From: a virus
Taxonomy: Duplodnaviria; Heunggongvirae; Uroviricota; Caudoviricetes
Length of the DNA stretch: 38,759 bases
IMG/VR virus record: IMGVR_UViG_2706794681_000009
Strand: one strand, 5' to 3'
The position numbers and the translations under genes were made by a program. Position 1 is the first letter of the stretch, and each line of letters starts with the position of its first letter. The notes beneath the pieces are model-generated. The model made no database searches. It saw only the letters and a list, made by a program, of their open reading frames with translations, and was not told the origin of the DNA. Of the stretch, positions 6,408 to 29,178 are shown piece by piece.

Positions 6408-6657
6408 NNNNNNNNNNNNNNNNNNNNNNNNNNNNNNNNNNNNNNNNNNNNNNNNNNNNNNNNNNNNNNNNNNNNNNNNNNNNNNNNNNNNNNNNNNNNN
6501 NNNNNNNNNNNNNNNNNNNNNNNNNNNNNNNNNNNNNNNNNNNNNNNNNNNNNNNNNNNNNNNNNNNNNNNNNNNNNNNNNNNNNNNNNNNNNNNNNNNN
6601 NNNNNNNNNNNNNNNNNNNNNNNNNNNNNNNNNNNNNNNNNNNNNNNNNNNNNNNNN
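6408..6657. other. Assembly gap (run of 250 N)
   Basis: Literal N characters. Confidence 1.
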
Positions 6658-12172: not shown

Positions 12173-14216
12173 AGTTCCCTCCGTTCCAGACGTTCACATC
12201 CAGGCCATGCTGTGCGGTATCATCCACATCAATACTGCGCGCCCGCCAGCCTTCAGGGGCAACAAGCTCCACCCGTGCGGCGGTTTTCGCGGTGGCCTGT
12301 CCGCCGTTTTCGTCACTGCCGCCACGCAGTTTCTGCCAGGCCTGCGTCAGCCAGCCCCCCAGATAATCACCGAGATAGCTGCCCACCGTGGAACCAATGG
12401 CAACCCCGACCGGACCGGCAGCCGCCCCCAGCGCGCCACCGGCGATACTTCCGGCAAGGGAACCCACGGCACCGGCTTTATCGGCTGCACTGGCGCTGCT
12501 GTCCAGCAGTACAGGAGCCGCCATGGCACCGGCCCACAGGGCACCACCACCCAGCCGACCGGCACCACGGAACAGCCCGGCAAAACGCCCCAGCCCCATG
12601 CGGTTTCCGGCCGCCGTTAGCAGACCACCGGCACGGCTCATCATACGACCGAAGAAGCCCTGTTTACCGGCACTCTCCGCCAGTTGCTCACCGGCAGTCA
12701 CGACGGTCGTGACACCCCGTCCACGTCCGGGGCCGCGTTTTTTACGGCCGCGCACGGTTTTGCCGTCACCGCTGACCACCACATCCCCGCCACCTGAGGC
12801 CAGGCCACCCGCAGGCCAATTGGTGACCAGCACGGGCTGAACGGCAGCCGGATTTACCCCGGTAAGGAAATTCAGGAACCGGCCAGCGCGTCCGGGCTGC
12901 GTTCCCGGTACAGTGGTCTGCGGTTTGCGGAAGGGCGACGTCAGCACGGAGGTCATCGCCATGCCATAGCGTAAGGGGGTTGCGCCGAGACGTAATGCCC
13001 CCGTCCCCGCAAACCTGAGCACCTTCAGCGCACGGGAGGCGAGATACATATACATCAGGTACTTTGCGGCGGTCTGCGCACCCTGACCAATGCGATCCAG
13101 CGCATCGCCATAACCGGCGTCGCGCAGTGCCTGAAGCGTTTCCCTGACTTTCTGAATGACCCGGTAAAAGCCGGTCGCAGCGTCTCTGGCATACTCAAAT
13201 CCCTGATTCAGGGCTGAGGCCGTCTGTGTGGCCAGCTTATCCTGTAAGCCGCTTTTCTGTGCCGCATCAGCATAATCCAGAAAGCCTTTCAGGCTCTTTT
13301 TCAGGCTGTCAAACGGTCCCTTTGCCATCACCTCGCGGGCAAATCCGTCCCAGACATCGCCCATCATGGACGTCATTCCCGTCCAGGAATTCATGGCGTT
13401 TTTCTGGGCACCTTTTGCCTGTTCGGCCATCACCTGAAATAACAGGCGAATGCTGTCCGGTCCCAGTTTTCCTTTCTCGCCTTTCTCACGGATGATCTTC
13501 TGGTTTACACCCAGCTTATCGGCCAGCAACTGGTAAACGTTAATCCCGTATCCGGTCAGAATATTGGCGTCCGCTGCCTGGATACTCTGGCGGGCAAACA
13601 TCTGTTTGAGTTGCAGGGACGCACCCTGTGCATCTGACAGTGACCAGCCGTGATAGCCGCCCTGATCCTGAAGCATGGTAATAAAGCGACGGGCTTCCCT
13701 GTCACTCATACCGAACCCGCGACTGGAGGCGTATTCCTGCATAACCCCCGCCAGCCCCCAGGTGGTGTCTTTGGCGTTCTGTACCGCCCAGGCTTTCACT
13801 GCTTCCGTTTTTGCCGTATCGCCATGATTAATGGCGTTGAGACGCAGAATATAGTTCTCCATCTCTGCGGCCGGGCGGATAAAGGCTTTATTAAACCCGT
13901 AGACCGCAGCCCCTCCCGCCAGCATCCCGTAAAGGTTGCTTATCCGCCCGATGGTGCCGGTAATGCTGCCCTGAAGGCGGTCAAAATCTGACGTCACCGT
14001 GCGGATACTGCCACGAACACCGGCAAGCGTTCGCTGCATACGGGAGCCGACAAGTTCTGTCTCCTGACCGGCACGACGTGCTGCATTTCCAAGACCACCC
14101 AGCCCCGTCCTGCCGGAACGGGAGAATGCCCCCAGCTCCTGTGACCACTGGCGGGATTTGGCAGAAATATTGCCGAGTAAATCGACAATCAGGGAGGCTT
14201 TCAGGTTTTTTGCCAT
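12159..14216 (-). CDS. Tail tape measure protein
   Basis: 685 aa, Gly/Ala-rich repeats, position between tail chaperone and baseplate genes. Confidence 0.8.
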   Translation of the reverse strand: MAKNLKASLIVDLLGNISAKSRQWSQELGAFSRSGRTGLGGLGNAARRAGQETELVGSRMQRTLAGVRGSIRTVTSDFDRLQGSITGTIGRISNLYGMLAGGAAVYGFNKAFIRPAAEMENYILRLNAINHGDTAKTEAVKAWAVQNAKDTTWGLAGVMQEYASSRGFGMSDREARRFITMLQDQGGYHGWSLSDAQGASLQLKQMFARQSIQAADANILTGYGINVYQLLADKLGVNQKIIREKGEKGKLGPDSIRLLFQVMAEQAKGAQKNAMNSWTGMTSMMGDVWDGFAREVMAKGPFDSLKKSLKGFLDYADAAQKSGLQDKLATQTASALNQGFEYARDAATGFYRVIQKVRETLQALRDAGYGDALDRIGQGAQTAAKYLMYMYLASRALKVLRFAGTGALRLGATPLRYGMAMTSVLTSPFRKPQTTVPGTQPGRAGRFLNFLTGVNPAAVQPVLVTNWPAGGLASGGGDVVVSGDGKTVRGRKKRGPGRGRGVTTVVTAGEQLAESAGKQGFFGRMMSRAGGLLTAAGNRMGLGRFAGLFRGAGRLGGGALWAGAMAAPVLLDSSASAADKAGAVGSLAGSIAGGALGAAAGPVGVAIGSTVGSYLGDYLGGWLTQAWQKLRGGSDENGGQATAKTAARVELVAPEGWRARSIDVDDTAQHGLDVNVWNGGNYGLY

Positions 14217-14343
14217 GGGTTACTGCTTCGTTCTGAGAATTTTTTCGGTCTGTCGGCAGTGCCGGTAAAGCTGCGATAAGGGGAGGTTAAGCGCCCACTC
14301 CGGGCCGCTTTTTGTCACCATCCCCAGCACAATTGCGGCTTCT

Positions 14344-14820
14344 TCAATCTGATCCCGGCACTGCATCTGGTCGCCCCCGTTCAGCGACCAGCTTTCCGGC
14401 CATCGCGGAATCAAGCAGGCTTACTGCCGCCATCAGTCGGGAGAGATCGCGCTCGCTGAGCTGTCCTATCTGACGCGGAGACAATGGCCCCTCAATCTGG
14501 CCGACAGCGGCAATCTGACGGCGCAGCAGCGCAATGCCGCGCAGTGCCGGTGAGGCCACAAGAACCGGACCGTTTCGGGTTTCCATAAGACGCTCGGCCT
14601 CGCTCTCCGCATCAATGCTGTCTTTTGCCGTCAGTTCGCGGAAGGTGACGCGGTATTCACGGGATTCCCCGAACGGCAGACCGTCGAGCAGATCCACATA
14701 GCCGTTCGCCAGTTGTTCAGCCAGCCCGGCGGTGCGGGGATCGCCGTCTTCAAGTGCATCCCGGATAGCCTCCATCACGGCCTCGTCAGAAACCGCCGTT
14801 TTTTTCTTACGTGTGCTCAT
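14344..14820 (-). CDS. Tail assembly chaperone (Mu gp41-like)
   Basis: 158 aa acidic protein between tail tube and tape measure. Confidence 0.5.
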   Translation of the reverse strand: MSTRKKKTAVSDEAVMEAIRDALEDGDPRTAGLAEQLANGYVDLLDGLPFGESREYRVTFRELTAKDSIDAESEAERLMETRNGPVLVASPALRGIALLRRQIAAVGQIEGPLSPRQIGQLSERDLSRLMAAVSLLDSAMAGKLVAERGRPDAVPGSD

Positions 14821-14834
14821 TACATTTTTCCTGA

Positions 14835-15200
14835 TTACTGGACACGGGTACTGGTGGCGCTGGCGAACTTCGCGGAGATATCACCACCACCGTCAAGCGA
14901 GGCCGGTTCACTGCTCCAGGCCTTCGTCATCATGTGGACTTCACCGGTATCGGCCACGAACTCAATCGTGACCGCAGTCCAGGTGTTGATTTCATCGGCA
15001 GCCGGTGAACCTTCTCCGCCCGCCGGGAATTTACAGTCCAGCGTCGCCTCACGGGGTTTCTCGCGATAGCCGTAAACTTTCGCGCCTTTCACCACTTCAC
15101 GCTCAAAGCCGGACGGGGAGAACGTGGCCCCCTCAAGGGTGTCGTACTCCTGCCCGTTCACACGGATGGTGGCCGTGCCCTGATACTGTTTTCCGCTCAT
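14835..15200 (-). CDS. Tail tube protein
   Basis: 121 aa directly downstream of sheath gene. Confidence 0.7.
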   Translation of the reverse strand: MSGKQYQGTATIRVNGQEYDTLEGATFSPSGFEREVVKGAKVYGYREKPREATLDCKFPAGGEGSPAADEINTWTAVTIEFVADTGEVHMMTKAWSSEPASLDGGGDISAKFASATSTRVQ

Positions 15201-15208
15201 GCCTTACC

Positions 15209-16711
15209 TCACAAAATGAAACGGATCTGCGCGGCCATGAAGCGGAACTGGTTAACCAGATCCGGTGTACACATCACATCCAGACGGTTACGGTCTTTTG
15301 TGTTGCGCTCCACGAGCAGATTCTTTTTAAAGGTGTCCAGATTTTCGACCAGTCCCAGATCCACCCATTCTTCCCCCAGCGAAATTAACTGAAGTTTCAT
15401 GATCTCCGGTGTCACGATATTCTGACCGGCACGAACGGGCGTCCCGTCATCAGCCAGTTTATGGCGCGGAAAACGCTGCGTGATAAAGGTGCGCAGGGAA
15501 TAACGCAGATATGACAGGGTGTAGATGGTTTCCACATCCAGATAGCTGGGATCGATTTCGCCGTATGCATTCTGACGGTACATCGTCACCTGACGTTCAA
15601 TCTGCACCACATCCGCGGCCGCGACGGTCACCGTGGACATGCCGGTATAAAGCAGGCTGTTTCGCTCTTCCCGCGTCAGACGATCCGGTGCTTCAGGTGC
15701 CATACGGGCAGGCAGCGCCAGTGTCTGTAATGGTCGGGCCGGATCCGTTGACAGGGAGGGCGCACAGACCGCACAAATGGAGGCAGCCCAGACATAATCC
15801 GGCTCTGGTGCTTTAGGAATAGAAGTGCAGGTAAACAGGAAGTCATTACGGGATTCACCAAAACTGGTTGCCGTACCGAAGGTGCCGGTATGCGCCATCC
15901 AGACCATACCGTCCGACATTTTTACCGGTCCCCAGCGTTTCAGCAGTTCATCCGCCAGAATTTTGAGATTTGCCGCATCCTTATAGGGCATGACGATGTA
16001 GTTGTACTGACGATTCCCCATCCCTGAGACGCTACGGGTGATATCGGGGTTTGTTGCCTTCTGTGTTGGCGCGACGAGCTCCAGCGTAAGACCGGCCGGT
16101 GTAGTTTCACCGTCATAATAGTTCACCCGTAAATCATGAGCTGAGCATTCACCGATAAAGCGGGCGTTAACCCCCATGCTGCCTTTAAGTCCTTCAGCAT
16201 TATCACCACTGACTTCAGCTGCGATAGCAGTGAATGGCGCATCAGTGTCAGCGTTAATGACCTTAGCCAGCTCTTCCACAAGCTCTTTACCTTTTTTCCC
16301 CTTACTGACGGGCAGGAGGTAACGGCGACCGCCGATGTAAACACTTAACACCCCGTCTGCCAATGCTGTTCCAATGATATTCATCACGCATGCCCTGGAC
16401 TGACCTGTTCCAGCCCCCTGTGCAATGGCATATAACTCTGTGTCAGGGTTAATGGCGATAAATTCCTCTACCATCAGTGCAATCATGGAACCTCGCCCCC
16501 AGAGTTCTCTTGCTTGTGAAGCTCGGGTAATACGTACTGGTACATCAAGCTGACCGCGCCCCTGAATGGTAGTGTCTTTCATTGCAGCCTGACCAAACAA
16601 CAGTACCGCCTGACGCTGTGGTGGAGTGCCGGTCACGGCCATTGAATTATTGATTTCAATCTGTACCAGCGGAATGCGATTGTTATCGCCGATATAATCA
16701 AAGTTAATCAT
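15209..16711 (-). CDS. Contractile tail sheath protein
   Basis: 500 aa, MINFDYIGD... sheath-like; followed by tube gene. Confidence 0.8.
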   Translation of the reverse strand: MINFDYIGDNNRIPLVQIEINNSMAVTGTPPQRQAVLLFGQAAMKDTTIQGRGQLDVPVRITRASQARELWGRGSMIALMVEEFIAINPDTELYAIAQGAGTGQSRACVMNIIGTALADGVLSVYIGGRRYLLPVSKGKKGKELVEELAKVINADTDAPFTAIAAEVSGDNAEGLKGSMGVNARFIGECSAHDLRVNYYDGETTPAGLTLELVAPTQKATNPDITRSVSGMGNRQYNYIVMPYKDAANLKILADELLKRWGPVKMSDGMVWMAHTGTFGTATSFGESRNDFLFTCTSIPKAPEPDYVWAASICAVCAPSLSTDPARPLQTLALPARMAPEAPDRLTREERNSLLYTGMSTVTVAAADVVQIERQVTMYRQNAYGEIDPSYLDVETIYTLSYLRYSLRTFITQRFPRHKLADDGTPVRAGQNIVTPEIMKLQLISLGEEWVDLGLVENLDTFKKNLLVERNTKDRNRLDVMCTPDLVNQFRFMAAQIRFIL

Positions 16712-16989
16712 CAGGACGTCCCCTTATCTGATGCTGCGGTTTTTTCAGCCACCGCCGCAGTTTTTTCTGCTACCGCTCCCGCTGGTTTTGCCGCCGCGCC
16801 GGTATTAGCAGTTGTGGCAGCCGGGGCAGGCTCCGCCGTTTTATCCACCACAATGACGTCGCCATCATTAAGACGGCGGCACCAGAACGGAGTGAAGGGT
16901 TTCTCTTCCCCGTCCTGAGAGAGCGGAGTCATCGTGTCGGGATCGCGGATCAGGCATCCCGGCGCAGGTTTAATAAAAATGGTTGTCAT
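16711..16989 (-). CDS. Small virion-associated protein (Mu gp38-like)
   Basis: 92 aa, Ala-rich tail, synteny. Confidence 0.45.
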   Translation of the reverse strand: MTTIFIKPAPGCLIRDPDTMTPLSQDGEEKPFTPFWCRRLNDGDVIVVDKTAEPAPAATTANTGAAAKPAGAVAEKTAAVAEKTAASDKGTS

Positions 16990-16992
16990 CTG

Positions 16993-17556
16993 TTATTCCT
17001 CTGACAGTCCGGCGTTTTCACCGGCGGCAGTTGCACCAGGCAGACGGATGTGTGCCTTAAATTCCGGCGTGCCTTCCGGTTCGGTAAAGGTTTCGTAATG
17101 GCGCAGGAAATCATCCAGCGAGCTGATATCCGTCAGCGGGTCGATCATTTCCTCGCATGAGAAATACAGGGCGTACATCACGGCACCGCTGCCTGCCTGC
17201 GTTTCGGTGTAACCGTTGACCGCCTTTTCAAAGTAAAGCGGTGAGGTTTTTTCTGCTCTGAAGCCGTCCAGCACGGTAATCAGGCGGGCCACAATCTGAT
17301 AAAGCCCGGGACGGCTGACCTCACGGCCATTGAGCATGTCGCCGATGACGTAGAACACCCAGTGACTGACCAGACGCCCACGGGTACGCCCTTCACCGGC
17401 ACCCAGCCAGGCAACATAGATAGCCGGGGCGTTAATCAGCATGGTGCGCAGTACGCTGTCGCTCCAGTCGCCGGGATGTGTGTCAACAGACACCAGTTCA
17501 TTCCCGAAATACTCACGGATACGGGCGATGTACGCCTGCTCGGTTTCCGTAATCAT
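16993..17556 (-). CDS. Tail completion/neck protein (Mu gp37-like)
   Basis: 187 aa; synteny. Confidence 0.5.
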   Translation of the reverse strand: MITETEQAYIARIREYFGNELVSVDTHPGDWSDSVLRTMLINAPAIYVAWLGAGEGRTRGRLVSHWVFYVIGDMLNGREVSRPGLYQIVARLITVLDGFRAEKTSPLYFEKAVNGYTETQAGSGAVMYALYFSCEEMIDPLTDISSLDDFLRHYETFTEPEGTPEFKAHIRLPGATAAGENAGLSEE

Positions 17557-17972
17557 ATAAAGCCCTTCTGGTTGCGCCCGAACACCGCCGCATCAGACTG
17601 CACCTGCGGTAAATCCCCGGATTCAGGGGCCGCACCGTCTGTATCCACGCCGACCGGCACGTTACCGTTCATGACATCTTTCAGCCAGGCCAGCGCCTCA
17701 CGGTAACGGTCACGCGCCTGATCGGATGCCCGCTGATCGCACAGGTAATAAAAGGCAATCGTGCAGCAATGCTGAACAAGGACCGCCGGAACCACCGCCA
17801 GCGGCAGCGTGTAACGGGAAGACAGATAGCTGTCGATAAGGGCAGACGCGTCCGTCAGTGCCCGGTTCAGCTTGCGCGTGTCCGGTTCATCCGAACGGGG
17901 CACGGCCAGTAATGGCCTGAGCAAATCCTCGCGGTAACGTGCCCGCATATCGGTTTCGGTGGCGTAATTCAT
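17553..17972 (-). CDS. Head-tail joining protein (Mu gp36-like)
   Basis: 139 aa; synteny. Confidence 0.5.
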   Translation of the reverse strand: MNYATETDMRARYREDLLRPLLAVPRSDEPDTRKLNRALTDASALIDSYLSSRYTLPLAVVPAVLVQHCCTIAFYYLCDQRASDQARDRYREALAWLKDVMNGNVPVGVDTDGAAPESGDLPQVQSDAAVFGRNQKGFI

Positions 17973-18328
17973 GCGCGCGCCTTTTTCGCCTGTCTGGCGT
18001 TATTGCCGGTCTTTTTCCGGGGAGCATCCTGTACGGTTTCGGCTTCGGCTAAATCTGCACCGGTCTCTGCATGAACCACACCCGCCACGGCTCCCGCATC
18101 ATCACCAGGCGTCTGTAGTATTCGTACAGTGAGGCATGGCTCCGCTTCCAGTCGGGCAAGCTGCTCCGGGGTGACGTCAACCTGCTGGCGTCCCCGCATG
18201 AACAGGAACCCCGCACGACGAAAATGCGTACGACTGCAACGCACTTCTGCCAGTACCGTGACAGGACTGTCACCACTGACCTGAAGGCCTGAATCATCTG
18301 TTGCTGCCACAGTGTGATGTTCATTCAT
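17969..18328 (-). CDS. Hypothetical head protein (Mu gp35 position)
   Basis: 119 aa between major capsid and gp36-like gene. Confidence 0.4.
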   Translation of the reverse strand: MNEHHTVAATDDSGLQVSGDSPVTVLAEVRCSRTHFRRAGFLFMRGRQQVDVTPEQLARLEAEPCLTVRILQTPGDDAGAVAGVVHAETGADLAEAETVQDAPRKKTGNNARQAKKARA

Positions 18329-18371
18329 ATTTGCCCTCCGCAGGGGCCGGGCCGTAAGCCCGGCTCACCGT

Positions 18372-19319
18372 TTACAGATAATCCGCGACAACCAGCTCCA
18401 GCTTGCCCTTCATCTCGTTAGAGACTGTGGCGTTACCGTCTGCGAACAGCTCGCGCTCCAGCAGCTGCACCGCCTGTTTTTCCAGCGAGGTGGGGACAAC
18501 AATATGGGTGGGTTTGATGCCGAGTTTGCGGCCACCGTCAGCCTTAAAGTCACGCATGGCTGACCAGCCGTGCCACAGCGCATCCAGCGTCAGCGGTGAC
18601 TGCATCATGTAGGCCATCTGCCAGAAGCCGTAGCCCACATTGCGACGGGCGGAAGCACCGAACACAAACTCGTTATCAGTAAACGCACGGCCTTCATCGA
18701 CTTTTGTCTGGGCAACCAGTTCGGCTTTGCGGCGATCCTGATAAATCAGCGGTTTTACCGCGCGGGAGCAGTCAAGCAGATACCAGGCCGGGCCGCTGTA
18801 ATCCGCCTGTGCACCGACAGAGCCGGTTTTTGCCACAAACATATTGCTGACCATCTGTGCATCACCGGAGCCATCCACTTTGGGGTAAACAGGGTGTTCG
18901 GTATCAAAGAAGTTCTGGCCGTCATAGCAGGCCGCATTCAGACCATCACGCAGTGCAGCAAAGACCAGTTCATCCGGTTGTGCCGCAGCGGCACGACCCA
19001 TTTCCTGGAATAACGGGGAGTAGATGCCGAGATTGTCGTCTTCAAAGTCATCGCGGCTAATGGCAACGGTGCCTTCAAAGGTTTTGTTCACGATGGCGTA
19101 GCCATAGGCTTTCATCTTCTCGATGACGCGGGAGCCGATCCACTCACGGAACTGCGGGAACTGCCCCAGCCAGCCGTAGGTGTTGGATTTCGAGGTGGAC
19201 GGCACGGTCATCGCAATTTTCTGGTACTGCGACGGAGCCATGGACATCCCGGCCTGAAAATCAGAACGGTAGCCCGTCATCAGGGCGGTGATCATCGCCG
19301 GTGTAATCGGGGTAGGCAT
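18372..19319 (-). CDS. Major capsid protein (Mu T-like)
   Basis: 315 aa immediately downstream of protease/scaffold gene. Confidence 0.8.
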   Translation of the reverse strand: MPTPITPAMITALMTGYRSDFQAGMSMAPSQYQKIAMTVPSTSKSNTYGWLGQFPQFREWIGSRVIEKMKAYGYAIVNKTFEGTVAISRDDFEDDNLGIYSPLFQEMGRAAAAQPDELVFAALRDGLNAACYDGQNFFDTEHPVYPKVDGSGDAQMVSNMFVAKTGSVGAQADYSGPAWYLLDCSRAVKPLIYQDRRKAELVAQTKVDEGRAFTDNEFVFGASARRNVGYGFWQMAYMMQSPLTLDALWHGWSAMRDFKADGGRKLGIKPTHIVVPTSLEKQAVQLLERELFADGNATVSNEMKGKLELVVADYL

Positions 19320-20452
19320 TATTGCATTTCCTCTTTCATTTTCAGGAACTCGGCTTCGGTTTTACCCAACAGACGTGCGGCGGCGATATCTTCAGCCGAC
19401 AGCACAGCGGTGGCGGTCTTTTTATCCGGCACGGTTACGGTGTCGGTCTGAAGAGTGGTCAGAGCCGCAACCGGCTGGCGGGCGTCAAGCTGTGCAGAAA
19501 GTGCCGCGACGCCAATCTGTTGTCCGAGTCCTTCCATGTATCCGCGTTCGCTTTTGAAAATGCGTCCTTCGGACTCGGCCTTATCCAGCAACTGCTCCAG
19601 CGTGGTGCTGCCGTGTTGTGCCGACAGCGCGGCATATTCGGTACGCAGGGCGTTATACGTCTCAACGGGCACATATTTCGTCAGATCAATAGTGCCGCCA
19701 GTTGGTGTGCCTTTTGCGGTTTCCAGTTCTGCCGACAGGCTGGCAACCTGCGTTTTCAGGGTGTCGTGCGCATCCGCACGGGTTTTGATCCCGGTAAGGG
19801 CAGACAGCGCCGCCGTGCCCAGTTCCGGTGTAAATTCGTCACCGTCAGCCACGGTCAGACCGAGCGCCGTCAGCAACTGGCGTAATTGCTCATTCATGGG
19901 GGATTGCTCCTGAGAAGGGGAAACGACATAGAGATCATCAGCACTGAGTGCCGCGACAGGGTTCATACCCGTAATACCCGGATCATTCGTCAGGGAAGCC
20001 ATGCGCAACAGGTAGGGTTCCCCGGTGTCAGCGAAATAATGCATATATGCAGACAGATAGGCATATTCACGGTCATCAATATGTTTTTGTGCCTGTGGTG
20101 TCCATTCAGGTTTAATGAAAATCCCCTGACCCTCACGCCATTCGATGTTTTCCGGCTTAACCCATCCTGCAGCAATAGCCTTGAATCCGTTTTTCTGCGC
20201 ATTCACGGAGTGATGGTCATAATCAATCAGTAACGGCTGATGCAGGGCGGAAAGCCCGGCTTTCATCCGGTTACAGGCGGATTCGTTAATCAGCCAGCCT
20301 TCAGTCGGTTTTTCCGGGCGACCGTCACGGGCCTTTACCCGACCGGCTGGCAGTAACTGACACCATCCGTCGCCGGATGCAGTCAGCGAAGCTGAAAGCA
20401 CGGCTAAACCGGAGGGGCGATTTGCGTCTTTTGGGTGATTTTCTGTCTTCAT
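19319..20452 (-). CDS. Head maturation protease/scaffold (Mu I-like)
   Basis: 377 aa; protease-like N-terminal region and coiled-coil Ala/Leu-rich C-terminus. Confidence 0.7.
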   Translation of the reverse strand: MKTENHPKDANRPSGLAVLSASLTASGDGWCQLLPAGRVKARDGRPEKPTEGWLINESACNRMKAGLSALHQPLLIDYDHHSVNAQKNGFKAIAAGWVKPENIEWREGQGIFIKPEWTPQAQKHIDDREYAYLSAYMHYFADTGEPYLLRMASLTNDPGITGMNPVAALSADDLYVVSPSQEQSPMNEQLRQLLTALGLTVADGDEFTPELGTAALSALTGIKTRADAHDTLKTQVASLSAELETAKGTPTGGTIDLTKYVPVETYNALRTEYAALSAQHGSTTLEQLLDKAESEGRIFKSERGYMEGLGQQIGVAALSAQLDARQPVAALTTLQTDTVTVPDKKTATAVLSAEDIAAARLLGKTEAEFLKMKEEMQ

Positions 20453-20629
20453 ACCGGCAGCATAAGCCGGGTATTTTTGGGGCTGGTTTTGCGGGACTTC
20501 AGAAAGTGCTGACAGGGGGGGAATGAGAAAGGCGCTTCACGCAGATTTTAAAGCCCGTTAAATACAGGTTAGAAAATCACGACACGCGCCTGAAGGGGGT
20601 AAGGTAATACGTTTGCATACCTTAAACCA

Positions 20630-21103
20630 TTACGGCGTTTCTGTGGCCTTTTTAAAGCGTTTTCTGATTTCGTCCATGATCTCCTGTTCTGCCACCTGAT
20701 CAAAGCCCATATACGGACGTGCGCCAATGGCCGCCGGTCCCGGTGGCATACCAGGCAGGCCACCCCACTGATGAATGGCTGCATAAGGTTCATTTGATCC
20801 AATCAGCGCCCAGGTATCGCCATAATCCGTGGTCAGGCGGCGGGCCAGATCGCCGTTCAGCGTCAGGATTTTGCCGGGCGTGTATCCCTTACGGGTACGC
20901 CACTCACGGTAAGGATCTGACCAGTCATGCCAGCGTTCACCATCCGGCTCTTTTTCCTGCTCAAACGCCATTTCTGACGATGACAGAAGACTCGCCGCCA
21001 CACTGCGGGCCAGGTCTTTTCCGCCGCCCACAAACTGAAGCCGGGCAAACACTCGCTGGAGACGCGTAACGTCAACAACGACAGCTGCATCAATGGATGA
21101 CAT
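20630..21103 (-). CDS. Virion morphogenesis protein (Mu G-like)
   Basis: 157 aa; synteny after F-like gene. Confidence 0.65.
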   Translation of the reverse strand: MSSIDAAVVVDVTRLQRVFARLQFVGGGKDLARSVAASLLSSSEMAFEQEKEPDGERWHDWSDPYREWRTRKGYTPGKILTLNGDLARRLTTDYGDTWALIGSNEPYAAIHQWGGLPGMPPGPAAIGARPYMGFDQVAEQEIMDEIRKRFKKATETP

Positions 21104-21224
21104 ATTGCCTCCGCATAAAGGATGAATATAAAATAAACAGGCGGTCAGTGTACGCTTAACTGGTAAAGTCGGTGCCTGCCTCCGGGTGGATCATGTATGC
21201 GGGTTCGACCCCCGCCACTGACCG

Positions 21225-22556
21225 TTAATCAATTTGTCCTTCCAGCACCTCAAGCATTCCGCCCCGGATATCCGATTTCAGCTTATCCATATTGATAACC
21301 CGGTAAGCATTCACAATCACATCCAGTTTGTCGGGCTGACGTTTCAGACTGTACGGTGCATTAACGGCAATCTGCACACTGCCATCCTGATTTTCCACGA
21401 TATACATCAGATTGTTGTGCCGTTTGTCCCACAGTACCGCTTTTGGCCTTGCCAGCATTGCCGGTAAGCGCCCGAAGTCCTCCGGCGTCAGAGCGATGCC
21501 GTCATTCTGATGTTTCACACTGTCCGCATGGAGCACATTTTTACCGCTCATCGCCAGCAGGCGGGCCGGTGGCGTTCCCGTCCGGCTTTCCACTGCCTGC
21601 GCAATGCTTTCAGTCATAAAGCCCAGCGTGCGGATATCGTTACCACCTCGCCGGGTCTGCATGATGTTTTTTGCCCAGATGCGGAACGCCAGCTGCCGCT
21701 CCGGGCTGTTGTTCATCTCCTGAACCACCATTTCCCGTAACGCCGGGCTTTTCACCTCGATCAGTTTGCGGATCAGCGCCTGGTCTGTGCCGAACGCTGC
21801 CGAGCCGGGGTTATATGACCAGCCCACATCCGGTGTCATGGTTCTGGCGCCATCTGAATATGTGGTCACCGGCATTTCTCTGACTTCTCCGGTCTGTTTA
21901 TCCACGCCAGCCTCAACATTGCGGGTGGAGAGATGATCCTCACCGGATGAAACGGATAACCCCATTGCATCCAGACGGGCCTGAGACAATGGCCGCACAC
22001 GGCAGCGGCAGTTCCAGCCATTGGGCGGGTAGTGTGTTTTCCAGAACGGATCGTCATAGCGGAATACCAGACCGTTAAGGGCGGAATGCGACGGGCGGGT
22101 ACGGCTGTCCATGACCGCCACATACTGCCAGAACGGATGCGTGTCCGTGTTGTTCATCATCTGCGTGTAACGCCCGGCATTGTAAGCCACACGGGTGTTC
22201 ACGTTGTAAATCAGCGCCAGACGACGGGGACTGCCCTGCTGCACTTCTTCCGCGTTACCGTCGCTGTCCACCACAATCTGCTTTCCCCACCATCCCAGCT
22301 TTTGCAGGCGTGGCGTCAGTGTGCGGATAAATTCTTTCTGTGAAATCCCCTCATCAATGGCCCGCTGCACTTCGGCCTGTAATGTGGTTACCACATCCAG
22401 CCGTGCCGTTTTTGCTGCCGTGAATGAGCGGGCATGAACATCCGCGTCTGTTTCGAACCAGTTCCAGCTGATATGCGCCCCTTTGGCGCGGAAGTATGCC
22501 ACCGTCTCTTTTGAGGGAAGCGTGGCGGCATAACCTAAATCAATCCCCTGAGCCAT
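21225..22556 (-). CDS. Head morphogenesis protein (Mu F-like)
   Basis: 443 aa directly downstream of portal gene. Confidence 0.7.
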   Translation of the reverse strand: MAQGIDLGYAATLPSKETVAYFRAKGAHISWNWFETDADVHARSFTAAKTARLDVVTTLQAEVQRAIDEGISQKEFIRTLTPRLQKLGWWGKQIVVDSDGNAEEVQQGSPRRLALIYNVNTRVAYNAGRYTQMMNNTDTHPFWQYVAVMDSRTRPSHSALNGLVFRYDDPFWKTHYPPNGWNCRCRVRPLSQARLDAMGLSVSSGEDHLSTRNVEAGVDKQTGEVREMPVTTYSDGARTMTPDVGWSYNPGSAAFGTDQALIRKLIEVKSPALREMVVQEMNNSPERQLAFRIWAKNIMQTRRGGNDIRTLGFMTESIAQAVESRTGTPPARLLAMSGKNVLHADSVKHQNDGIALTPEDFGRLPAMLARPKAVLWDKRHNNLMYIVENQDGSVQIAVNAPYSLKRQPDKLDVIVNAYRVINMDKLKSDIRGGMLEVLEGQID

Positions 22557-24129
22557 CCAGCATCCCCTTCATTTCCGCAGCAAACATGGCATCACTGAGC
22601 AGCGTCATCAGGCGGGAATCATCCATTTCACGGTAAAGGGCAGGCAGGTCTGCCAGTGCCTCCGCCAGCCCCCGCGTTCTGATGACATCAATGACCGGCT
22701 CCAGCACCGGATCGATGGCCTCCTGTAAGCGGCGGGCAGGCACCGCGTCCCCCATGTCGTCCAGTTCATCACGCGGCGTGTTTTTCGCTTCCGGCAGTCG
22801 GGCTGAAAGCGCCGTCTGTTCTGTCTTTTCCTGTTTTTCCGGTAGCGTTTCCCTGTCAGGCATGGCCGGTTCATTACTGCTCTGACGGACACGGAATATG
22901 GCTTCACCGGGCGTGGGCTGTGGAATACCGGTCTGATCCCGTACCCAGGGATCAGGAATATCCATCCCCGCACTGAGTTGCATCACCGCACTGGCTATTT
23001 TGGTGATATCCCCCGGTTCTTTGGTCTGGAAACAGATACGCGGCAGGCGACGGATATCAATGGCGTGGGCGGTGTTCAGGGCATACAGCGGATACACCAG
23101 ATCGCGGTTCAGGGTTGCAGCCAGCTGGCGTAAATCAGAATCCCTGATTTCCCGGCGCACCTCGTTATGCACCTCACCCAGCGAGCGCGCGCCTTTGTCT
23201 CCGGCTTCTGTGGTCAGCGTGCCGCCGAGTATTGCTTTGGAGATGGAACGCTCACCCCACGAAATCATGGTTTCAAACGGATCGGCCTGACCGTTCGCTG
23301 CCGCCTGAAACTCCAGCGACATCCCGGCCGGGATGATCCCGCCTGTACGTCGCCCGATATCCATCACCGCCCGCATCAGGGCACTTTTCTGCTCCGGTGT
23401 TGCCCCGGACGGGTATTTCCCGACCTTCATTGGCAGGCCGTACACCTCCAGAAATTCCGCCAGATCGCGCACGGAATAGTTTTTGAAAATGAACGGCCAG
23501 ATAAGCGTTCTGACAAGCCCCGTCGCACCACCGTAGCCGGTGCGTGAACGCGACTGATGCACTATCCAGCCAAAGGGCTGAAACGCCACCCCGGCATGGC
23601 TGCCGTCACGCAGCCGCAGTTCGCTCAAATCATCCGGGTTAAGGCAGAAATGCCCGCTGTCACGCCAGCGGATGGCGCGGATGATGTGCATTTTACCGAG
23701 CATCCCGTGCTCAATTTCCATGCAGGAATAGCCCTTCAGGATGGCATCCGTGGCGTCAAACAGCATGGCATCAAACCAGTCTGCGGAATGCAGATATTCG
23801 TCGAGCATTTCCGCGTCCTTTTTCTCATTCGCGCTGGCGTTCGGTGGCGGCTCAATACTCCATGGCACCCCCTGAATGGCAAGACGTCGCTTGCCCAGCT
23901 CCGCAAAAAGGTGGGTGTCCTTTTCTTCAATATCAGCGGCCAGATCGGACTGGGCAATCAGATCGCCACGTTCAGCCCCGCGAAGGCACTGCGCCGCCCG
24001 GTTCGGGGTGATACCCGAAGCCGGATGTTCAATATAACGGCTGGCAATCTGCGGAATATCCAGCGCGGCACTCTGCATCTCCGGGTCAAAGGAGAAAGGT
24101 TTTCCGTCAGTATCAATGATGCGTCCCAC
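22540..24129 (-). CDS. Portal protein (Mu gp29-like)
   Basis: 529 aa downstream of large terminase. Confidence 0.75.
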   Translation of the reverse strand: MGRIIDTDGKPFSFDPEMQSAALDIPQIASRYIEHPASGITPNRAAQCLRGAERGDLIAQSDLAADIEEKDTHLFAELGKRRLAIQGVPWSIEPPPNASANEKKDAEMLDEYLHSADWFDAMLFDATDAILKGYSCMEIEHGMLGKMHIIRAIRWRDSGHFCLNPDDLSELRLRDGSHAGVAFQPFGWIVHQSRSRTGYGGATGLVRTLIWPFIFKNYSVRDLAEFLEVYGLPMKVGKYPSGATPEQKSALMRAVMDIGRRTGGIIPAGMSLEFQAAANGQADPFETMISWGERSISKAILGGTLTTEAGDKGARSLGEVHNEVRREIRDSDLRQLAATLNRDLVYPLYALNTAHAIDIRRLPRICFQTKEPGDITKIASAVMQLSAGMDIPDPWVRDQTGIPQPTPGEAIFRVRQSSNEPAMPDRETLPEKQEKTEQTALSARLPEAKNTPRDELDDMGDAVPARRLQEAIDPVLEPVIDVIRTRGLAEALADLPALYREMDDSRLMTLLSDAMFAAEMKGMLDGSGD

Positions 24130-25796
24130 TACCAGCCCCCCCGATCAAATTCATGATATGCCTCATCGTCATCACGATAACCGCCCTCCATTGCCCGCGA
24201 CCGCTCCTGTAGCGCCTGACAGGCTGATTCATCCAGGATGAAGCCCTCCATGTATGACGCCCGGTTTGCCATACAGAGCGCCACGGCAAAATCACCATGG
24301 CGGCGGGCGTTCGCAGCCGTTGCGTTCTGGTCCTTCGTGCGCCCCTTGTCGATTTGCGGGATACCATTCACTACCTTCACATGGCGCAAATCATCAAGCG
24401 TGGTCTGATGGCGGGCGACGAGGATATTCTGATCTTCAAACTCGGCTTTCAGTTTTGGCATCCACTCGCCGTACCACTTCGGCGACAACATCACGCAGTC
24501 GATGATGTCCGGGCCAAAGGCCAGCAGTGCGGCCTCTGCCAGATAGCCGCCGTTACCGGTGGCGTCGAACGCCGCACCGACCAGCGCCGGAACGCGGGTC
24601 AGGATGTACATCATCACCTGTTCCTGCTGGGCATACGGCAGGTTGCGCAGCTCCACGCGAAACACCTCGCGCTTTGCCAGGGATTCGGTGATTTCCAGCA
24701 GCACAAAGCAGGACAGGTCACCGGTGCGGGCAAAGTCTTCCCCGAAGCTGAAGCGGGAACGGGGATTTAATTTCTCTAAAAGCGGTTTTAAATGTTCTTC
24801 ACACCAGGTTAAAACTTCCGATTCACGCAGCCATGCGGCACGGCTGATGAAGTTGTCCGGGGCTTCAAACGTCAGAATCGGGATGTCGCGGATCATCGCC
24901 ATTTCAATAAGCGCGTGGGGGATATAGGCACCGCCGGATTTTTTCGGGATACAGCCGTATTCCTCGTCGGCATCCTCACGGGTCGGGGCGTTTTTGTAGA
25001 GATCATCACGCCATTTCTGCTCGCTTTCCGGTGACCATTCCTGATCGGTGACGTAACAGATACGACGGTACAGCCCGTCCGCAATGGCATCATCCAGGGT
25101 TATGCGGTGGACGCTGTAATCCTTGCGCCCCTCGCGGGCTTCCTGAATGTACTGATTAAACAGATTATCGACGCCGTTATGCGTGGAGATAATACGCACG
25201 CGCGCGCCCCACATAGTGAGCGCCATTGCCGCCTTGAGAAGCTCATCCAGTGACTCGTGGAACGCGGCTTCATCAATCACCACATCCCCCTGAAGGCCGC
25301 GCAGGTTTGACGGACGGGAAGACAATGCCTGAATTTTGAATCCACTGTTCGGAAAGCGGATCATGTAGGTCAAAATTTCTTCTTTTTTATCCCGATCCCA
25401 GAATGTCTGCTCATACACATCAGCATCTGCCAGCTGGTTAAAGGCACGGGAGAACAGCGCGCAGGCAGAAATATATTCCAGCGCCATCTCCTGCTTTGAT
25501 CCCACATAAAACACATTGCGGCCACCACGACGCTTCGGTTTTGCAGCAGTAATGACGTTACGCCCGGCTTCCGCCCAGGTAAGACCGGTGCGGCGGGATT
25601 TCTCCGCGATGCAGACCTGACTTTCATCTGCAAACCAGCGGGCCTGATAATCCAGAAACACCGGCATATCACCGGGCAAATCAAGGCTGTCCGGCACATC
25701 CACGCCCAGCAGGGCTTTTTCACCTGACAGATCAATTTTGCGGGGAGGCGTCATTTGCATCAGTGAAGGCGACGTTTCTCTGGCTTTGTTCATCAT
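24129..25796 (-). CDS. Terminase large subunit
   Basis: 555 aa; ATPase/nuclease-type composition; synteny. Confidence 0.8.
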   Translation of the reverse strand: MMNKARETSPSLMQMTPPRKIDLSGEKALLGVDVPDSLDLPGDMPVFLDYQARWFADESQVCIAEKSRRTGLTWAEAGRNVITAAKPKRRGGRNVFYVGSKQEMALEYISACALFSRAFNQLADADVYEQTFWDRDKKEEILTYMIRFPNSGFKIQALSSRPSNLRGLQGDVVIDEAAFHESLDELLKAAMALTMWGARVRIISTHNGVDNLFNQYIQEAREGRKDYSVHRITLDDAIADGLYRRICYVTDQEWSPESEQKWRDDLYKNAPTREDADEEYGCIPKKSGGAYIPHALIEMAMIRDIPILTFEAPDNFISRAAWLRESEVLTWCEEHLKPLLEKLNPRSRFSFGEDFARTGDLSCFVLLEITESLAKREVFRVELRNLPYAQQEQVMMYILTRVPALVGAAFDATGNGGYLAEAALLAFGPDIIDCVMLSPKWYGEWMPKLKAEFEDQNILVARHQTTLDDLRHVKVVNGIPQIDKGRTKDQNATAANARRHGDFAVALCMANRASYMEGFILDESACQALQERSRAMEGGYRDDDEAYHEFDRGGW

Positions 25797-26041
25797 GCTT
25801 TACCTGTCAGAATGCTTTTGATTCGGGACTCAAGCTCTTCAGTCATCACGTCCACGCCGCTCAACTCATCAGTGGCAGCCTCTGCCAGCAGCGAATGCAG
25901 TTGTTCCAGGGATATTTCCCCGGCAATGCTGAGTTCAGTCAACTCACGACATACCTTTATGGTTTCAGGAGGTAACTGTGTTGCAAGACTGAATGCTTTC
26001 TGATGGGCACTGCTCATCAGTGAGCGGTTATCTGTTGCCAT
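25793..26041 (-). CDS. Small protein paralogous to the C-terminus of the small terminase subunit
   Basis: 82 aa; ...ATDELSGVDVMTEELESRIKSILTGKA aligns with ...VTDELRGVDGMSEQIEFRIRQMLLGKA of the upstream gene. Confidence 0.45.
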   Translation of the reverse strand: MATDNRSLMSSAHQKAFSLATQLPPETIKVCRELTELSIAGEISLEQLHSLLAEAATDELSGVDVMTEELESRIKSILTGKA

Positions 26042-26051
26042 GATTCACCTC

Positions 26052-26633
26052 CTACGCCTTACCCAGCAGCATCTGCCTGATACGGAATTCGATCTGCTCG
26101 CTCATGCCATCCACGCCGCGCAACTCATCGGTGACCGCATTCGCCATCTCTTCAGCAAATGCGGCCCGGATTTCTTTTTCACGCTTAATGCTGCGCTCGG
26201 CGGCACTTTCTGCACGCTGTGCCGACAGGAGGATGTCCTTAATAAGGCGCATATCCACATCGCTGTCGCTGTTCAGGGATTCGGTGGCGGCACGCAGACG
26301 GCGGTACATCAGGGCACGGGACATCTCCAGAATCAGTGCCGTGGTTTCACCGGTCGGCTTATCCCCCAGTTCGGCCATCATGGCTTTTGTCTGCTCGCGT
26401 AAATCACGCAGATTACGGGCAATCAGCTCATTACGGGAGGCTTCCCGGCTGATGGCCGCCGGTGAGAGCTGCTGCTCTTCCGGCAGACCTGCTTCACGGA
26501 TCAGACGGTTGATTTCCTCGCGGATCTGGACCTGCGTCAGACGTTTTTCACGCAGCATTTCCAGCAGCGGCTTACGGATGCTGTCGGGGAGCAAATCCAC
26601 CTTGCGTACACGGCCACGCGCTGGCTTATCCAT
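26052..26633 (-). CDS. Terminase small subunit (Mu gp27-like)
   Basis: 193 aa basic N-terminus, position before large terminase. Confidence 0.6.
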   Translation of the reverse strand: MDKPARGRVRKVDLLPDSIRKPLLEMLREKRLTQVQIREEINRLIREAGLPEEQQLSPAAISREASRNELIARNLRDLREQTKAMMAELGDKPTGETTALILEMSRALMYRRLRAATESLNSDSDVDMRLIKDILLSAQRAESAAERSIKREKEIRAAFAEEMANAVTDELRGVDGMSEQIEFRIRQMLLGKA

Positions 26634-26635
26634 CG

Positions 26636-26926
26636 TTACCCCCTTGCGCGTGGTTTCTTCACACCCGGAACGGTGGCGCGGCCTTCCGCCACATCCTGAC
26701 CCCGGCCGGTCAGTTCAGCGATGAAATAACCGTTAACAAGCGTGCGCTTACGCACCAGTCCCTGCTCGGCAAGCCAGGCAATGTGGGTATGAACGGTGTC
26801 GCGGGACACGCGGTGACCGTAATCATCCAGGCAGTCCTGAAGCACGGATTCGCCCAGTTCGCCGTTGTAATCCGCCAGCGACCGCAGAATGACAAGACGC
26901 TGATCTTCAGTAATGAAATCACTCAT
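26636..26926 (-). CDS. Hypothetical protein (Mu gp26 position)
   Basis: 96 aa; synteny. Confidence 0.4.
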   Translation of the reverse strand: MSDFITEDQRLVILRSLADYNGELGESVLQDCLDDYGHRVSRDTVHTHIAWLAEQGLVRKRTLVNGYFIAELTGRGQDVAEGRATVPGVKKPRARG

Positions 26927-27230
26927 TGTGTTTTTTCCTTACAGCCTGCTCCAGCAGCAGTTCGTTCTGATGGGAGACGGATTTCAGGGTGGCATTGGTG
27001 GCCTTAAGCTCACCGCGCAGGGTGGTGATTTCGATATTGAGTCTGTTCACCTCCTGCTGCGTGGGCAGGCCGGAAATCCGGCTCTCCACCCGCTCAACCC
27101 GGTCGGAGAGTTTTTCAAAGGCCTCGCGGGGGACAAAGGTTTTGCGCATCAGCGCCATGAAGATCCCCCCGGCTGTGGCCGTTGCCGACAGGATCGGCAC
27201 GACATAATCTTTAACGATGCTGACCCACAT
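26919..27230 (-). CDS. Membrane/coiled-coil protein (Mu gp25 position; possible lysis accessory)
   Basis: N-terminal hydrophobic helix then coiled coil. Confidence 0.4.
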   Translation of the reverse strand: MWVSIVKDYVVPILSATATAGGIFMALMRKTFVPREAFEKLSDRVERVESRISGLPTQQEVNRLNIEITTLRGELKATNATLKSVSHQNELLLEQAVRKKHNE

Positions 27231-27438
27231 GACCGGCCTCCATGATGTTCTGGCAGTTCACACAACGGATGGCATCCGGCACGGCAACCAGACGGGCAGC
27301 CGGAATGTCACCCCCGCAGTCCGCGCATACACGCCTGCCCGGTGTCTCCGCCACCCGGCGCTTACGTGTCAGCCGGTCACAAAGGGCGCGTTCTGTTGCA
27401 CGCTCCATGACTGCCTGAGCACAATCTGAATCATCCAT
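27211..27438 (-). CDS. TraR/DksA-type C4 zinc-finger protein
   Basis: CADCGG...CVNCQ motif; start trimmed to MDDSDCAQ. Confidence 0.5.
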   Translation of the reverse strand: MDDSDCAQAVMERATERALCDRLTRKRRVAETPGRRVCADCGGDIPAARLVAVPDAIRCVNCQNIMEAGHVGQHR

Positions 27439-27448
27439 ACCTTTTTCC

Positions 27449-27820
27449 TTACTTCGTCTTTCCTGCCGGAACAGCAGTCGTTCCGGCCATATCAGTAAAT
27501 TCATGCTGTCGCTGTGTCTCCAGACGGCGGATGCTGGCCTTGTCCACGTTGCAGTTTTTAATCACCGCCAGCAGTTGCAGGTTGTAAGTGACCGATGCAC
27601 CAAACGTGAACGGCTGCGGCGCGGGAGGGACCAGGCAGTCAGCCAGCCATTCAGCGGGGATCGGCACCGGCTTCACCGGCACGTATTTCACAGACGGCCC
27701 GCCGCACCCGGTCAGCCACATCATCAGGCACAGGCACAGCGGCAGCAGGCACCGTTGCCAGTGACCGGCGGACAATGCTCTGCTGTTCCTCGCTGTGCTG
27801 CATGTTCTGCTGTTTTTCAT
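27449..27820 (-). CDS. o-spanin lipoprotein (Rz1-like), overlapping i-spanin out of frame
   Basis: Signal peptide ending in lipobox LTGC followed by Pro-rich mature region. Confidence 0.45.
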   Translation of the reverse strand: MKNSRTCSTARNSRALSAGHWQRCLLPLCLCLMMWLTGCGGPSVKYVPVKPVPIPAEWLADCLVPPAPQPFTFGASVTYNLQLLAVIKNCNVDKASIRRLETQRQHEFTDMAGTTAVPAGKTK

Positions 27821-28001
27821 TCGTGGCCGCCTTGCTGATTTGTGAAATGAGTTGCAGGGTGCGTTGCTGGTTTGCCAGCACCAGACGGGCTTCGTCCCGT
27901 TCACGCACAAGCACATGATTATTGTCCTCAAGGCGCTGCGTCTTCTGGTGCATTCCCCATACCACGGCAGCCAGCACGCTCATCACCCCCAGCGCCGCCA
28001 T
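27651..28001 (-). CDS. i-spanin (Rz-like); start uncertain (alternative 28151)
   Basis: N-terminal TM helix AALGVMSVLAAVVW then charged coiled-coil region; directly after endolysin. Confidence 0.4.
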   Translation of the reverse strand: MAALGVMSVLAAVVWGMHQKTQRLEDNNHVLVRERDEARLVLANQQRTLQLISQISKAATNEKQQNMQHSEEQQSIVRRSLATVPAAAVPVPDDVADRVRRAVCEIRAGEAGADPR

Positions 28002-28113
28002 ACAGCCTCCGGCAATCAGGGCCGGTAAGGGATTGTTCACCGCAGACACAGCACACCCCGCAGCAGCACAACGGCACACAGCAGCGCAATCATGAGCGGT
28101 CGCCAGAAGCGGT

Positions 28114-28614
28114 TCAGACTTTCGGCAAATCGTAACGACATAACCATTCATCCGCCGAACGGCGGGCCTCAAGACCGGGGAGTTTTACCCCCTTTGAATA
28201 AATCCAGCGGATATACTGCTTACAGGACGCGGGCATCTGCCCGGCATTGATAAGGCGCAGGAGCGTGGAGTTGCGAAAGTTCGTTTCACCGGCCCAGAAA
28301 ATCCAGGAGGCCAGCGCCACCGTCTGACCACGGGTAAGCGGCACCTGAACATGACGATCGATAGCCGCAAAGGCCCATTTCATGTCCTTTTCCAGCAGCT
28401 CCAGACACTCTTCATCAGTTTTTGTCATCCCCGGTTTCACATCCGGGCCGGTATGGCCGTAACAGATGGTGGGGGTGCCGGTGGGATCAATGTACGTGGT
28501 GTTTTCTTTCCCTTCCCAGTAGCCGGTGTAGTGCGTGGCAATGGTGAACGTCCCGGCTCCGGCCAGAACAAGGGCAATCAGCTTTTTACGCAGGGGTGCG
28601 GGGAGTTTTGGCAT
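28114..28614 (-). CDS. lys: SAR endolysin (T4-lysozyme-like muramidase with N-terminal signal-anchor)
   Basis: N-terminal LIALVLAGAGTFTIATHY hydrophobic segment followed by EGKENTTYIDPTGTPTICYGHT catalytic region. Confidence 0.75.
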   Translation of the reverse strand: MPKLPAPLRKKLIALVLAGAGTFTIATHYTGYWEGKENTTYIDPTGTPTICYGHTGPDVKPGMTKTDEECLELLEKDMKWAFAAIDRHVQVPLTRGQTVALASWIFWAGETNFRNSTLLRLINAGQMPASCKQYIRWIYSKGVKLPGLEARRSADEWLCRYDLPKV

Positions 28615-28685
28615 TGTTACGCTGTCTCATGGTGTTCTCTGAGTCAGCGTAACCGTGAGGAAAAGGGGGCAGGATTTGCGGAATA

Positions 28686-29108: not shown

Positions 29109-29178
29109 ACCCGCCTCCGGTCATCATTACACAGGGCAAGTTTAAAATAAAAATCCCGCGCTGTGGCGGGATTTGGGG

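Follow-up and report, generated by a model that had tools for sequence, protein, structure and literature searches.

Which sequence does the late-gene activator of a Mu-like prophage recognize, and at which promoters? We addressed this question with IMG/VR record IMGVR_UViG_2706794681_000009, a stretch of 38,759 nucleotides (hereafter the window, meaning the whole of the DNA analysed), which Pfam matches and open reading frame (ORF) positions identify as a Mu-like prophage with its late genes on the minus strand. An initial annotation had rightly read this DNA within the framework known from phage Mu, and had proposed the string CCT-N-CCCCTT as the site of that activator upstream of three late transcription units, headed by the genes for lysozyme (lys), protease/scaffold (I), and tape measure. 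The strings are present where they had been placed, all on the minus strand (CCTGCCCCCTTTTCC at 28673-28659, CCTTACCCCCTTCAGG at 20604-20589, and CCTCCCCTTATCG at 14286-14274), and their distances from the ATG codons, measured as 49-59 nt before lys, 141-152 nt before I, and 62-70 nt before the tape measure gene, agree with those given in it. Comparison with related phages leads us, with good confidence, to a different answer: the three strings are probably unrelated sequences alike by chance, and the real activator box is probably TTTCTGA-N4-CCGCAAAWCC, located at three late promoters, Plys, PI, and a third one following the invertase gene.

Candidate late promoters of the prophage

For the comparison we used 73 IMG/VR loci, whose activators range from 100% down to 39% identical to that of the window, and added one Salmonella prophage, the O157:H7 prophage, and Mu (~80 loci overall). 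The activator-lys and G-I intergenic regions were taken from all of them; loci L003-L005, which are frameshifted or chimeric contigs, were excluded from counts. In these regions a box stood at a fixed distance from a −10 hexamer in every clade. The conserved module consists of TTTCTGA-N4-CCGCAAAWCC, an imperfect TTT...AAA dyad, followed after 19-20 nt by a TAyGCT-like −10 (TACGCT at Plys, TATGCT at PI, and TATTCT at the third site), with no −35 hexamer; the −35 positions read TCCTGC and ACCAGC, which match TTGACA at one position of six, and a scan with the sigma-70 consensus found none there. Versions of the box in the different clades are CCGCAAAWCC, TACCGCAAAyCC, ACCGTAAwCCC, and ACCGGAATCmCC, with CCATAAyCCC in Mu. 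The distance from the box centre to the end of the −10 is 37.5 nt at Plys and PI and 36.5 nt at the third site, compared with 36.5 nt in Mu; placing the box centre at about −43.5 presupposes a start 6-7 nt after the −10.

The Plys module occupies 28692-28646 (minus strand), with TTTCTGA at 28692-28686, the core CCGCAAATCC at 28681-28672, a 20-nt spacer, the −10 TACGCT at 28651-28646, no −35 (TCCTGC), and a predicted start at about 28640. Its sequence, TTTCTGA-TATT-CCGCAAATCC-(20 nt)-TACGCT-GACTCAGAGAA, is collinear with that of Mu Plys, TTTCCTGTCACCATAATCC-(21 nt)-TAGACT-GCCATCAGAGAA, and TCAGAGAA after the −10 is common to both. Other boxes at Plys, TACCGCAAATCC, ACCGTAATCCC, and ACCGGAATCmCC, and CACCATAATCCC in Mu, are found at the same distance from a TAnnCT −10. 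Among 12 distinct close relatives, positions 28694-28675, 28673-28668, and the −10 were invariant; 8 of the 10 positions from 28667 to 28658 were variable. CCGCAAAWCC was present in all 15 Plys loci with an activator at least 96% identical to that of the window.

At PI (20505-20459, minus strand) the architecture and spacing are those of Plys: TTTCTGA at 20505-20499, the core CCGCAAAACC at 20494-20485, a 20-nt spacer, and the −10 TATGCT at 20464-20459. The core was invariant in 13 distinct relatives, and at the same place Salmonella-type phages have TTTACTGA-TTTA-CCGCAAACCC-(20 nt)-TAAGCT, with the homologous box TACCGCAAACCC. Read from 20505 to 20450, TTTCTGA-AGTC-CCGCAAAACC-(20 nt)-TATGCT-GCCGGT-ATG, the sequence brings the I ATG (20452) to 6 nt after the −10.

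The third module lies on the plus strand at 1974-2019, with TTTTTGA at 1974-1980, the core CCGCAAAACA at 1985-1994, a 19-nt spacer, and the −10 TATTCT at 2014-2019 (TTTTTGA-ATTT-CCGCAAAACA-(19 nt)-TATTCT). It follows the invertase gene, in the place of Mu Pmom, and is separated by 35 nt (2020-2054) from the ATG at 2055 of a gene encoding a protein with DUF6645 and a SASA-type esterase domain. In the O157 prophage the same place, with diverged flanks, reads TTTACTGA-ATTA-ACGCAAAATG-(19 nt)-TATGAT.

These three sites were also detected independently. A matrix comprising the 22-nt box, a 19-21-nt spacer, and the −10 was trained only on Salmonella-type phages with activators 54-69% identical to that of the window; out of ~77,000 positions on both strands of the window, its top three were Plys (29.9), PI (19.4), and 1973+ (17.0), compared with a null maximum that in 100 Markov simulations had a mean of 12.9, a 95th percentile of 16.7, and a maximum of 20.1. 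The third site was third-best in the whole window with matrices that excluded it, scoring 27.3 in one and 17.0 in the Salmonella-type-trained one, and over the whole length of the O157 prophage the same three module sites, and no others, were found. The sequences and positions of the modules, their conservation, their independent detection, and their co-variation with the activator, described below, are direct observations. A matrix built from the four Mu late promoters was tried and gave nothing at the expected places in the window; it was not directly usable because the Mu box is too diverged.

In Mu late promoters a 16-bp imperfect dyad has its centre at −43.5, the footprint of C extends from about −55 to −30, and a −10 is present but no −35 (PMC2582627; PMC4461284). 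The Mu record annotates Plys, PI, PP (inside N), and Pmom, and when aligned these four show the 16-bp imperfect dyad, then CCC(C/G), a spacer of ~20 nt, and a weak −10. The window resembles Mu in its activator, which belongs to the same family and shares 41% identity with Mu C; in the orthologous places of its promoters, after the activator gene and before lys, between G and I, and after the invertase gene; and in a −10 without a −35 and an imperfect dyad that keeps the same spacing to the −10 and is better conserved in its right half. The boxes themselves are partly shared (CACCATAATCCC in Mu and TTCCGCAAATCC in the window). It differs from Mu in having only one Mor/C protein and no equivalent of PP, in a third promoter that precedes the DUF6645/esterase gene and not com-mom directly, and in a PI start predicted at the I ATG. 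We consider it likely that the window promoters are ordinary, not yet described relatives of the Mu late promoters with a diverged box.

Several points weigh against this interpretation. The scores of PI (19.4) and the third site (17.0) lie only at or just above the null 95th percentile, with a null maximum of 20.1, and support for these two sites comes in part from where they lie and from their being kept in the O157 prophage. The start predicted for PI coincides with the I ATG or adjoins it; such a placement is unusual and could mean that the −10 is mis-assigned. One Salmonella relative (L002) has no clear Plys box. The left half-site TTTCTGA of Plys overlaps the last codons of the activator gene and includes its TGA stop, so part of the conservation at Plys could be coding constraint; at PI, at the third site, and at Salmonella-type Plys the left half-site is non-coding. 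GCC(CC) directly follows the core at both Plys and PI in the window, so a minor role for the first Cs is possible. More generally, the assignments of box, −10, and start rest on homology and conservation. Another reading would make the CCGCAAAWCC modules some other conserved signal, such as a site for a host factor or an element in the RNA of read-through transcripts; a conserved GC inverted repeat whose loop holds the PI −10 hints at an extra layer of control. However, in position, spacing, and partial sequence identity the modules match Mu C boxes defined by experiment, changes in the box go together with changes in the recognition helix of the activator, and no Rfam family matched the window; we therefore regard such a signal as very unlikely and retain the CCGCAAAWCC module as the probable activator box.

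The inverted repeat at PI, CCGGC...GCCGG, occupies 20450-20471 (minus strand) and holds TATGCT in its loop; in Salmonella-type phages the PI repeat is GACCGCC...GGCGGTC, with different bases and the pairing kept. In every CCGCAAA-type clade the I ATG follows the −10 at 6-7 nt and lacks a Shine-Dalgarno sequence. This arrangement suggests that I mRNA made from PI is leaderless and that, on transcripts reading through, the I start is structured and translated poorly.

The three CCT-N-CCCCTT strings

With a gap of 0-3 nt, the pattern CCT-N(0-3)-CCCCTT had exactly three matches in the window, the three sites named above. The initial annotation had suggested a check for enrichment, and when this was done by first-order Markov simulation the excess was weak: three matches on both strands against 1.0 expected (P(>=3) = 0.10) and, on one strand, three against 0.39 expected (P = 0.005), in each case for a pattern fitted to its hits, with CCCCTT alone at expectation (20 seen and 20 expected). 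Because the pattern and its elastic gap were defined from the hits, these figures are not valid tests and overstate the case.

A Mor/C-family activator site that marks the three late units of lys, protease/scaffold, and tape measure would be consistent with the location of all three matches on the late strand upstream of late genes, with the one-strand count, and with the placement of the lys string where a footprint like that of Mu C (−55 to −30) would have its downstream edge (PMC2582627). Against it stand the post hoc definition with a 0-3-nt gap and the very different distances from any −10, which are about −33 to −23 at Plys and about −150 to −140 at I, where ~100 nt separate the string from the PI box downstream; before the tape measure gene it falls inside an ORF. 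Nor is the string kept among phages with the same activator: of 15 Plys regions from phages whose activator is at least 96% identical, 8 had it, and all 14 O157-type Plys regions lacked it (CCTGCCGCCTTTCC; the string is lost as CCTGCCGCC and CCTCCCCCTG). It is also missing from the independently detected third promoter (1974-2019), which has no C-run. As detailed below, the string lies in a variable spacer at lys, in a gyrase-site homologue before I, and in coding sequence at the tape measure gene. The cross-phage comparison thus largely refutes the reading of CCT-N-CCCCTT as the activator box, which we hold to be extremely unlikely, and the string ought to be dropped as a regulatory element. 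The further remark that it is missing upstream of com-mom is true but uninformative.

At lys, the string CCTGCCCCCTT (28673-28663, minus strand) spans about −33 to −23 of Plys. It opens on the last two bases of the box core (CC, 28673-28672), and its first six bases, CCTGCC at 28673-28668, were invariant. Its CCCCTT part (28668-28663, about −28 to −23) runs into the variable spacer, and four of the six positions varied among near-identical phages.

We considered whether the C-rich stretch after the box (WGCCCC at Plys and PI) might be an accessory element that tunes the strength of activator-dependent transcription, as distinct from a recognition site, so that a real but secondary feature had been caught at one or two promoters. 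Mu late promoters have CCC(C/G) directly after the dyad, and dyad-adjacent bases matter for activation (PMC2582627); in the window the corresponding sequences are CC-TGCCCCC at Plys and CC-AGCCCCA at PI, and TGCC at 28671-28668 was invariant. However, conservation past the core is limited to the first four bases, with free variation in the CCCCTT part; a C-run is lacking from the third promoter (CATATTT) and from the O157 and Salmonella versions; and such an element would not cover the strings before I and the tape measure gene. We judge an accessory role to be unlikely, and the string at lys is better read as the end of the CCGCAAAWCC core followed by a variable stretch of the spacer.

Within the 110-nt activator-lys region, nearly all differences between near-identical phages fell in a 10-nt pyrimidine patch at 28658-28667, whose length was kept. 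The patch could be a mutational hot spot or a site at which promoter strength is tuned.

The string before I, CCTTACCCCCTT (20604-20593, minus strand), lies in a block at 20540-20621. When representatives of 12 clades, Mu among them, were aligned, this block matched the Mu strong gyrase site (SGS) across the whole family. In Mu the SGS is situated between G and I and has an essential right arm (PMC10052514; PMC3820752); its cut site is annotated at 17879/17880, likewise between these two genes. Strong quinolone-induced cleavage by gyrase and a requirement of the site for replication are described in the literature for Mu and the O157 Sakai prophage (PMC10052514). The equivalent of the cut site in the window is near GGTATGCAAAC^GTATTACC, followed by the phased T/A tracts of the right arm (Mu GATTTTTAAACCGGTATTTAACGG and window GATTTTCTAACCTGTATTTAACGG), and the block was nearly invariant in 13 relatives. 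The likeness to the Mu SGS extends to the central place between G and I, to alignable sequence including GATTTTnTAAnCnGTATTTAACGG, and to the phased T/A tracts. The SGS of an O157 Sakai Mu-like prophage has been reported to be able to replace that of Mu (PMC10052514), and this prophage is a close relative of the window prophage. The first T-tract of the right arm, where the window clade differs from Mu, reads CCCCCTT in this clade, and it is on this tract, ~7 nt to the right of the cut-site equivalent, that the CCT-N-CCCCTT string falls. Its C-run is not fixed, reading CCTTACCCTCTT in three loci (L009, L018, and L021) with activators 99-100% identical. From this alignment we take the block to be a gyrase-site homologue, with cleavage putative.

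Two other candidates in this region were set aside. The distal hexamers TAACCT/TAAAAT near the string were rejected as PI, because the conserved box and −10 lie ~100 nt downstream and because the distal block aligns with the Mu gyrase site. The resemblance of TCCCGCAAAACC in the window to the −10 region of Mu PI, CCCGCAAACT, was judged a coincidence, since the cross-clade alignment places it as the box.

The string before the tape measure gene, CCTCCCCTT (14286-14278, minus strand), is not intergenic. It lies inside an open frame that extends the tail-assembly chaperone gene, of Mu gp41 type, at 14414-14220 (minus strand; open from 14420) in the −2/+1 frame relative to that of 14344-14820, and that ends as ...SGPEWALNLPLSQLYRHCRQTEKILRTKQ*, 4 nt before the tape measure ATG. 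In this frame the string reads (AA)C CTC CCC TTA, or Leu-Pro-Leu, and relatives have CTC CCT TTA, CTC CCC CTG, and CTT CCC TTA, all of them synonymous and all breaking the proposed pattern. Substitutions in the extension frame of 17 distinct relatives were mostly at third positions and synonymous, and we read the variation at this site as synonymous drift under constraint at the level of the protein. The Mu annotation has a verified −2 frameshift at the same gene. As in the chaperone frameshifts of Mu gp41/gp41' and lambda G/GT, the overlapping frame is open from within the chaperone gene, with a conserved G-run slip region and protein-level conservation; nothing about the window is unusual in this respect. 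Near the string no promoter module was found in the window or the O157 prophage, and no sigma-70-like promoter or terminator was found. These scans gave no evidence for the tape measure gene as the start of a separate late unit. The idea of activator-dependent late promoters holds for lys and I, which are preceded by promoters of the activator type (a −10 and no −35).

The activator and the late regulon

The activator is encoded at 28686-29108 (minus strand) as a protein of 140 aa that matches Pfam PF08765 (E 6.7e-31) and is 41% identical to Mu C and 29% identical to Mu Mor. No second Mor/C homologue was found in the window by tblastn. The sole gene of this family directly follows gemA, in the place that mor has in Mu, yet it is more like C, and lys follows it directly. 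The presence of a single Mor/C protein, encoded where Mu has mor, implies that the cascade passes from early directly to late, with no middle stage of its own.

Across the clades the sequence of the box and the residues of the recognition helix change together: helices ending QIYQIIARQ go with the box core ATAA, those ending QIYDIIARQ with GGAA, and those of the form QIY(A/S/T)(I/V)IR(E/N)Q with GCAAA or GTAA. The varying helix residues align with Q116 and R120 of Mu C, both listed among the base-contacting residues in a cryo-EM preprint (bioRxiv 10.1101/2025.05.02.651988). Relative to Mu C, the window activator has S for Q116 and R-N for A119-R120, and the box core is GCAAA in the window and ATAA in Mu. 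This natural series of activator/box pairs (ATAA, GGAA, GTAA, and GCAAA) could be used to learn how Mor/C proteins read DNA, and it is timely now that structures of Mu C with RNA polymerase exist.

Between gemA and the activator gene lies a perfect hairpin at 29151-29178 (minus strand), AAATCCCGC-CACAGC-GCGGGATTT, with a T-run after it. In a scan of 9500-29300 it ranked first among terminator-like sites, and it is kept across clades with diverged flanks. Its left arm, CCCCAAATCCCGCC, agrees with the late box and flank at 12 of 14 positions, a likeness reminiscent of the Mu Pm dyad/terminator; the hairpin may serve autoregulation or be the relic of a middle promoter.

By analogy with Mu C, we infer that the activator binds at the three promoters, that these depend on it, and that transcription starts there. 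The 140-aa protein would bind the box centred ~43-44 nt upstream of the start and recruit or activate sigma-70 RNA polymerase. Plys (28692-28646) would serve the lysis and head genes as far as G; PI (20505-20459) would serve protease/scaffold, capsid, and apparently all tail genes including tape measure; and the third promoter (1974-2019, plus strand) would serve the DUF6645 gene and possibly com-mom. The outcome is a testable map of the late regulon of Sp18-like prophages, consisting of the box, three promoters with coordinates, no equivalent of Mu PP, and a gyrase-site homologue. A more specific scenario, which we put forward tentatively and consider rather unlikely in its entirety, is a simplified two-stage cascade in this widespread E. 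coli/Shigella family of Mu-like prophages, in which the single Mor/C protein, encoded after gemA behind a conserved terminator-like dyad with arms resembling its own box, would directly switch on the three late promoters; transcription from PI would begin on the I start codon, making the protease/scaffold mRNA leaderless, and the PI −10 would sit in the loop of a covarying GC hairpin; and the hypervariable Plys spacer, which includes the C-run of the initial annotation, might tune lysis timing between otherwise identical phages.

A promoter for com-mom itself was sought by module search of 5188-5443 (plus strand), which gave only weak partial matches with the wrong spacing. Upstream of com (ATG at ~5445) lies a palindrome with two GATC sites, AATCGATCG-TTTTTGT-CGATCGATT at 5376-5400 (plus strand), which is also conserved in the O157 prophage and is reminiscent of the region of Dam/OxyR control that precedes Mu Pmom; the stretch from the palindrome to com showed no clear activator box. 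There was also no PP equivalent in the window N gene at the site homologous to Mu PP (~11176-11224). The C box of Mu PP, TTAACTGCCATAACCCCG (27296-27313 of the Mu record, L001), encodes a 6-aa insertion, LTAITP, in Mu N that is missing from the N proteins of the window and the O157 prophage; PP looks like an acquisition of the Mu lineage inside a coding region.

Prophage context

The window prophage shares only ~72% identity with Mu, over short stretches, and 93% identity with Mu-like elements inserted in Shiga toxin (Stx) phages. Close copies were found in 231 of 5,426 complete E. coli genomes, and Sp18-like Mu-like prophages are common in E. coli O157, other Shiga toxin-producing E. coli, and Shigella sonnei. 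A scan of GTDB genomes with the single activator protein gave no matches, and with an activator alignment it returned only Haemophilus and Actinobacillus loci, too distant to help.

The genes identified include those for the repressor (37889-38434, plus strand), ner (37473-37703), transposase A (35383-37470), B (34368-35309), and GemA (29179-29691). After the activator gene come lys (28114-28614; ATG at 28614), G (20630-21103), I (19319-20452), the tail-assembly chaperone gene (14344-14820; Pfam Gp41_Mu), the tape measure gene (12159-14216; ATG at 14216), N (10814-12172), and P (9706-10830). In one locus of the 49% clade (L051), a tandem array of at least six copies of CCCCAAAAG, absent in sister loci, stands at the 5' end of the lysozyme gene.

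A run of 250 Ns interrupts the tail-fibre gene at 6408-6657. The segment to its left (1-6407), which contains the tail-fibre C-terminus, an assembly protein, the invertase, DUF6645, DUF1378, DUF826, com, mom, and the right end of the prophage, runs opposite to the normal order, as found in the O157 and DLI.5a prophages, and com-mom and the third promoter are therefore on the plus strand. Either a real rearrangement or an error of scaffolding or orientation at the invertible tail-fibre region could account for the inversion. Within this segment, between the invertase gene and com-mom, the gene at 2055-4109 (plus strand) encodes a 684-aa protein that combines a SASA sialate-O-acetylesterase domain with DUF6645, an esterase of the kind known from Stx phages, and that appears to be driven by a late promoter of the Mu-like prophage.

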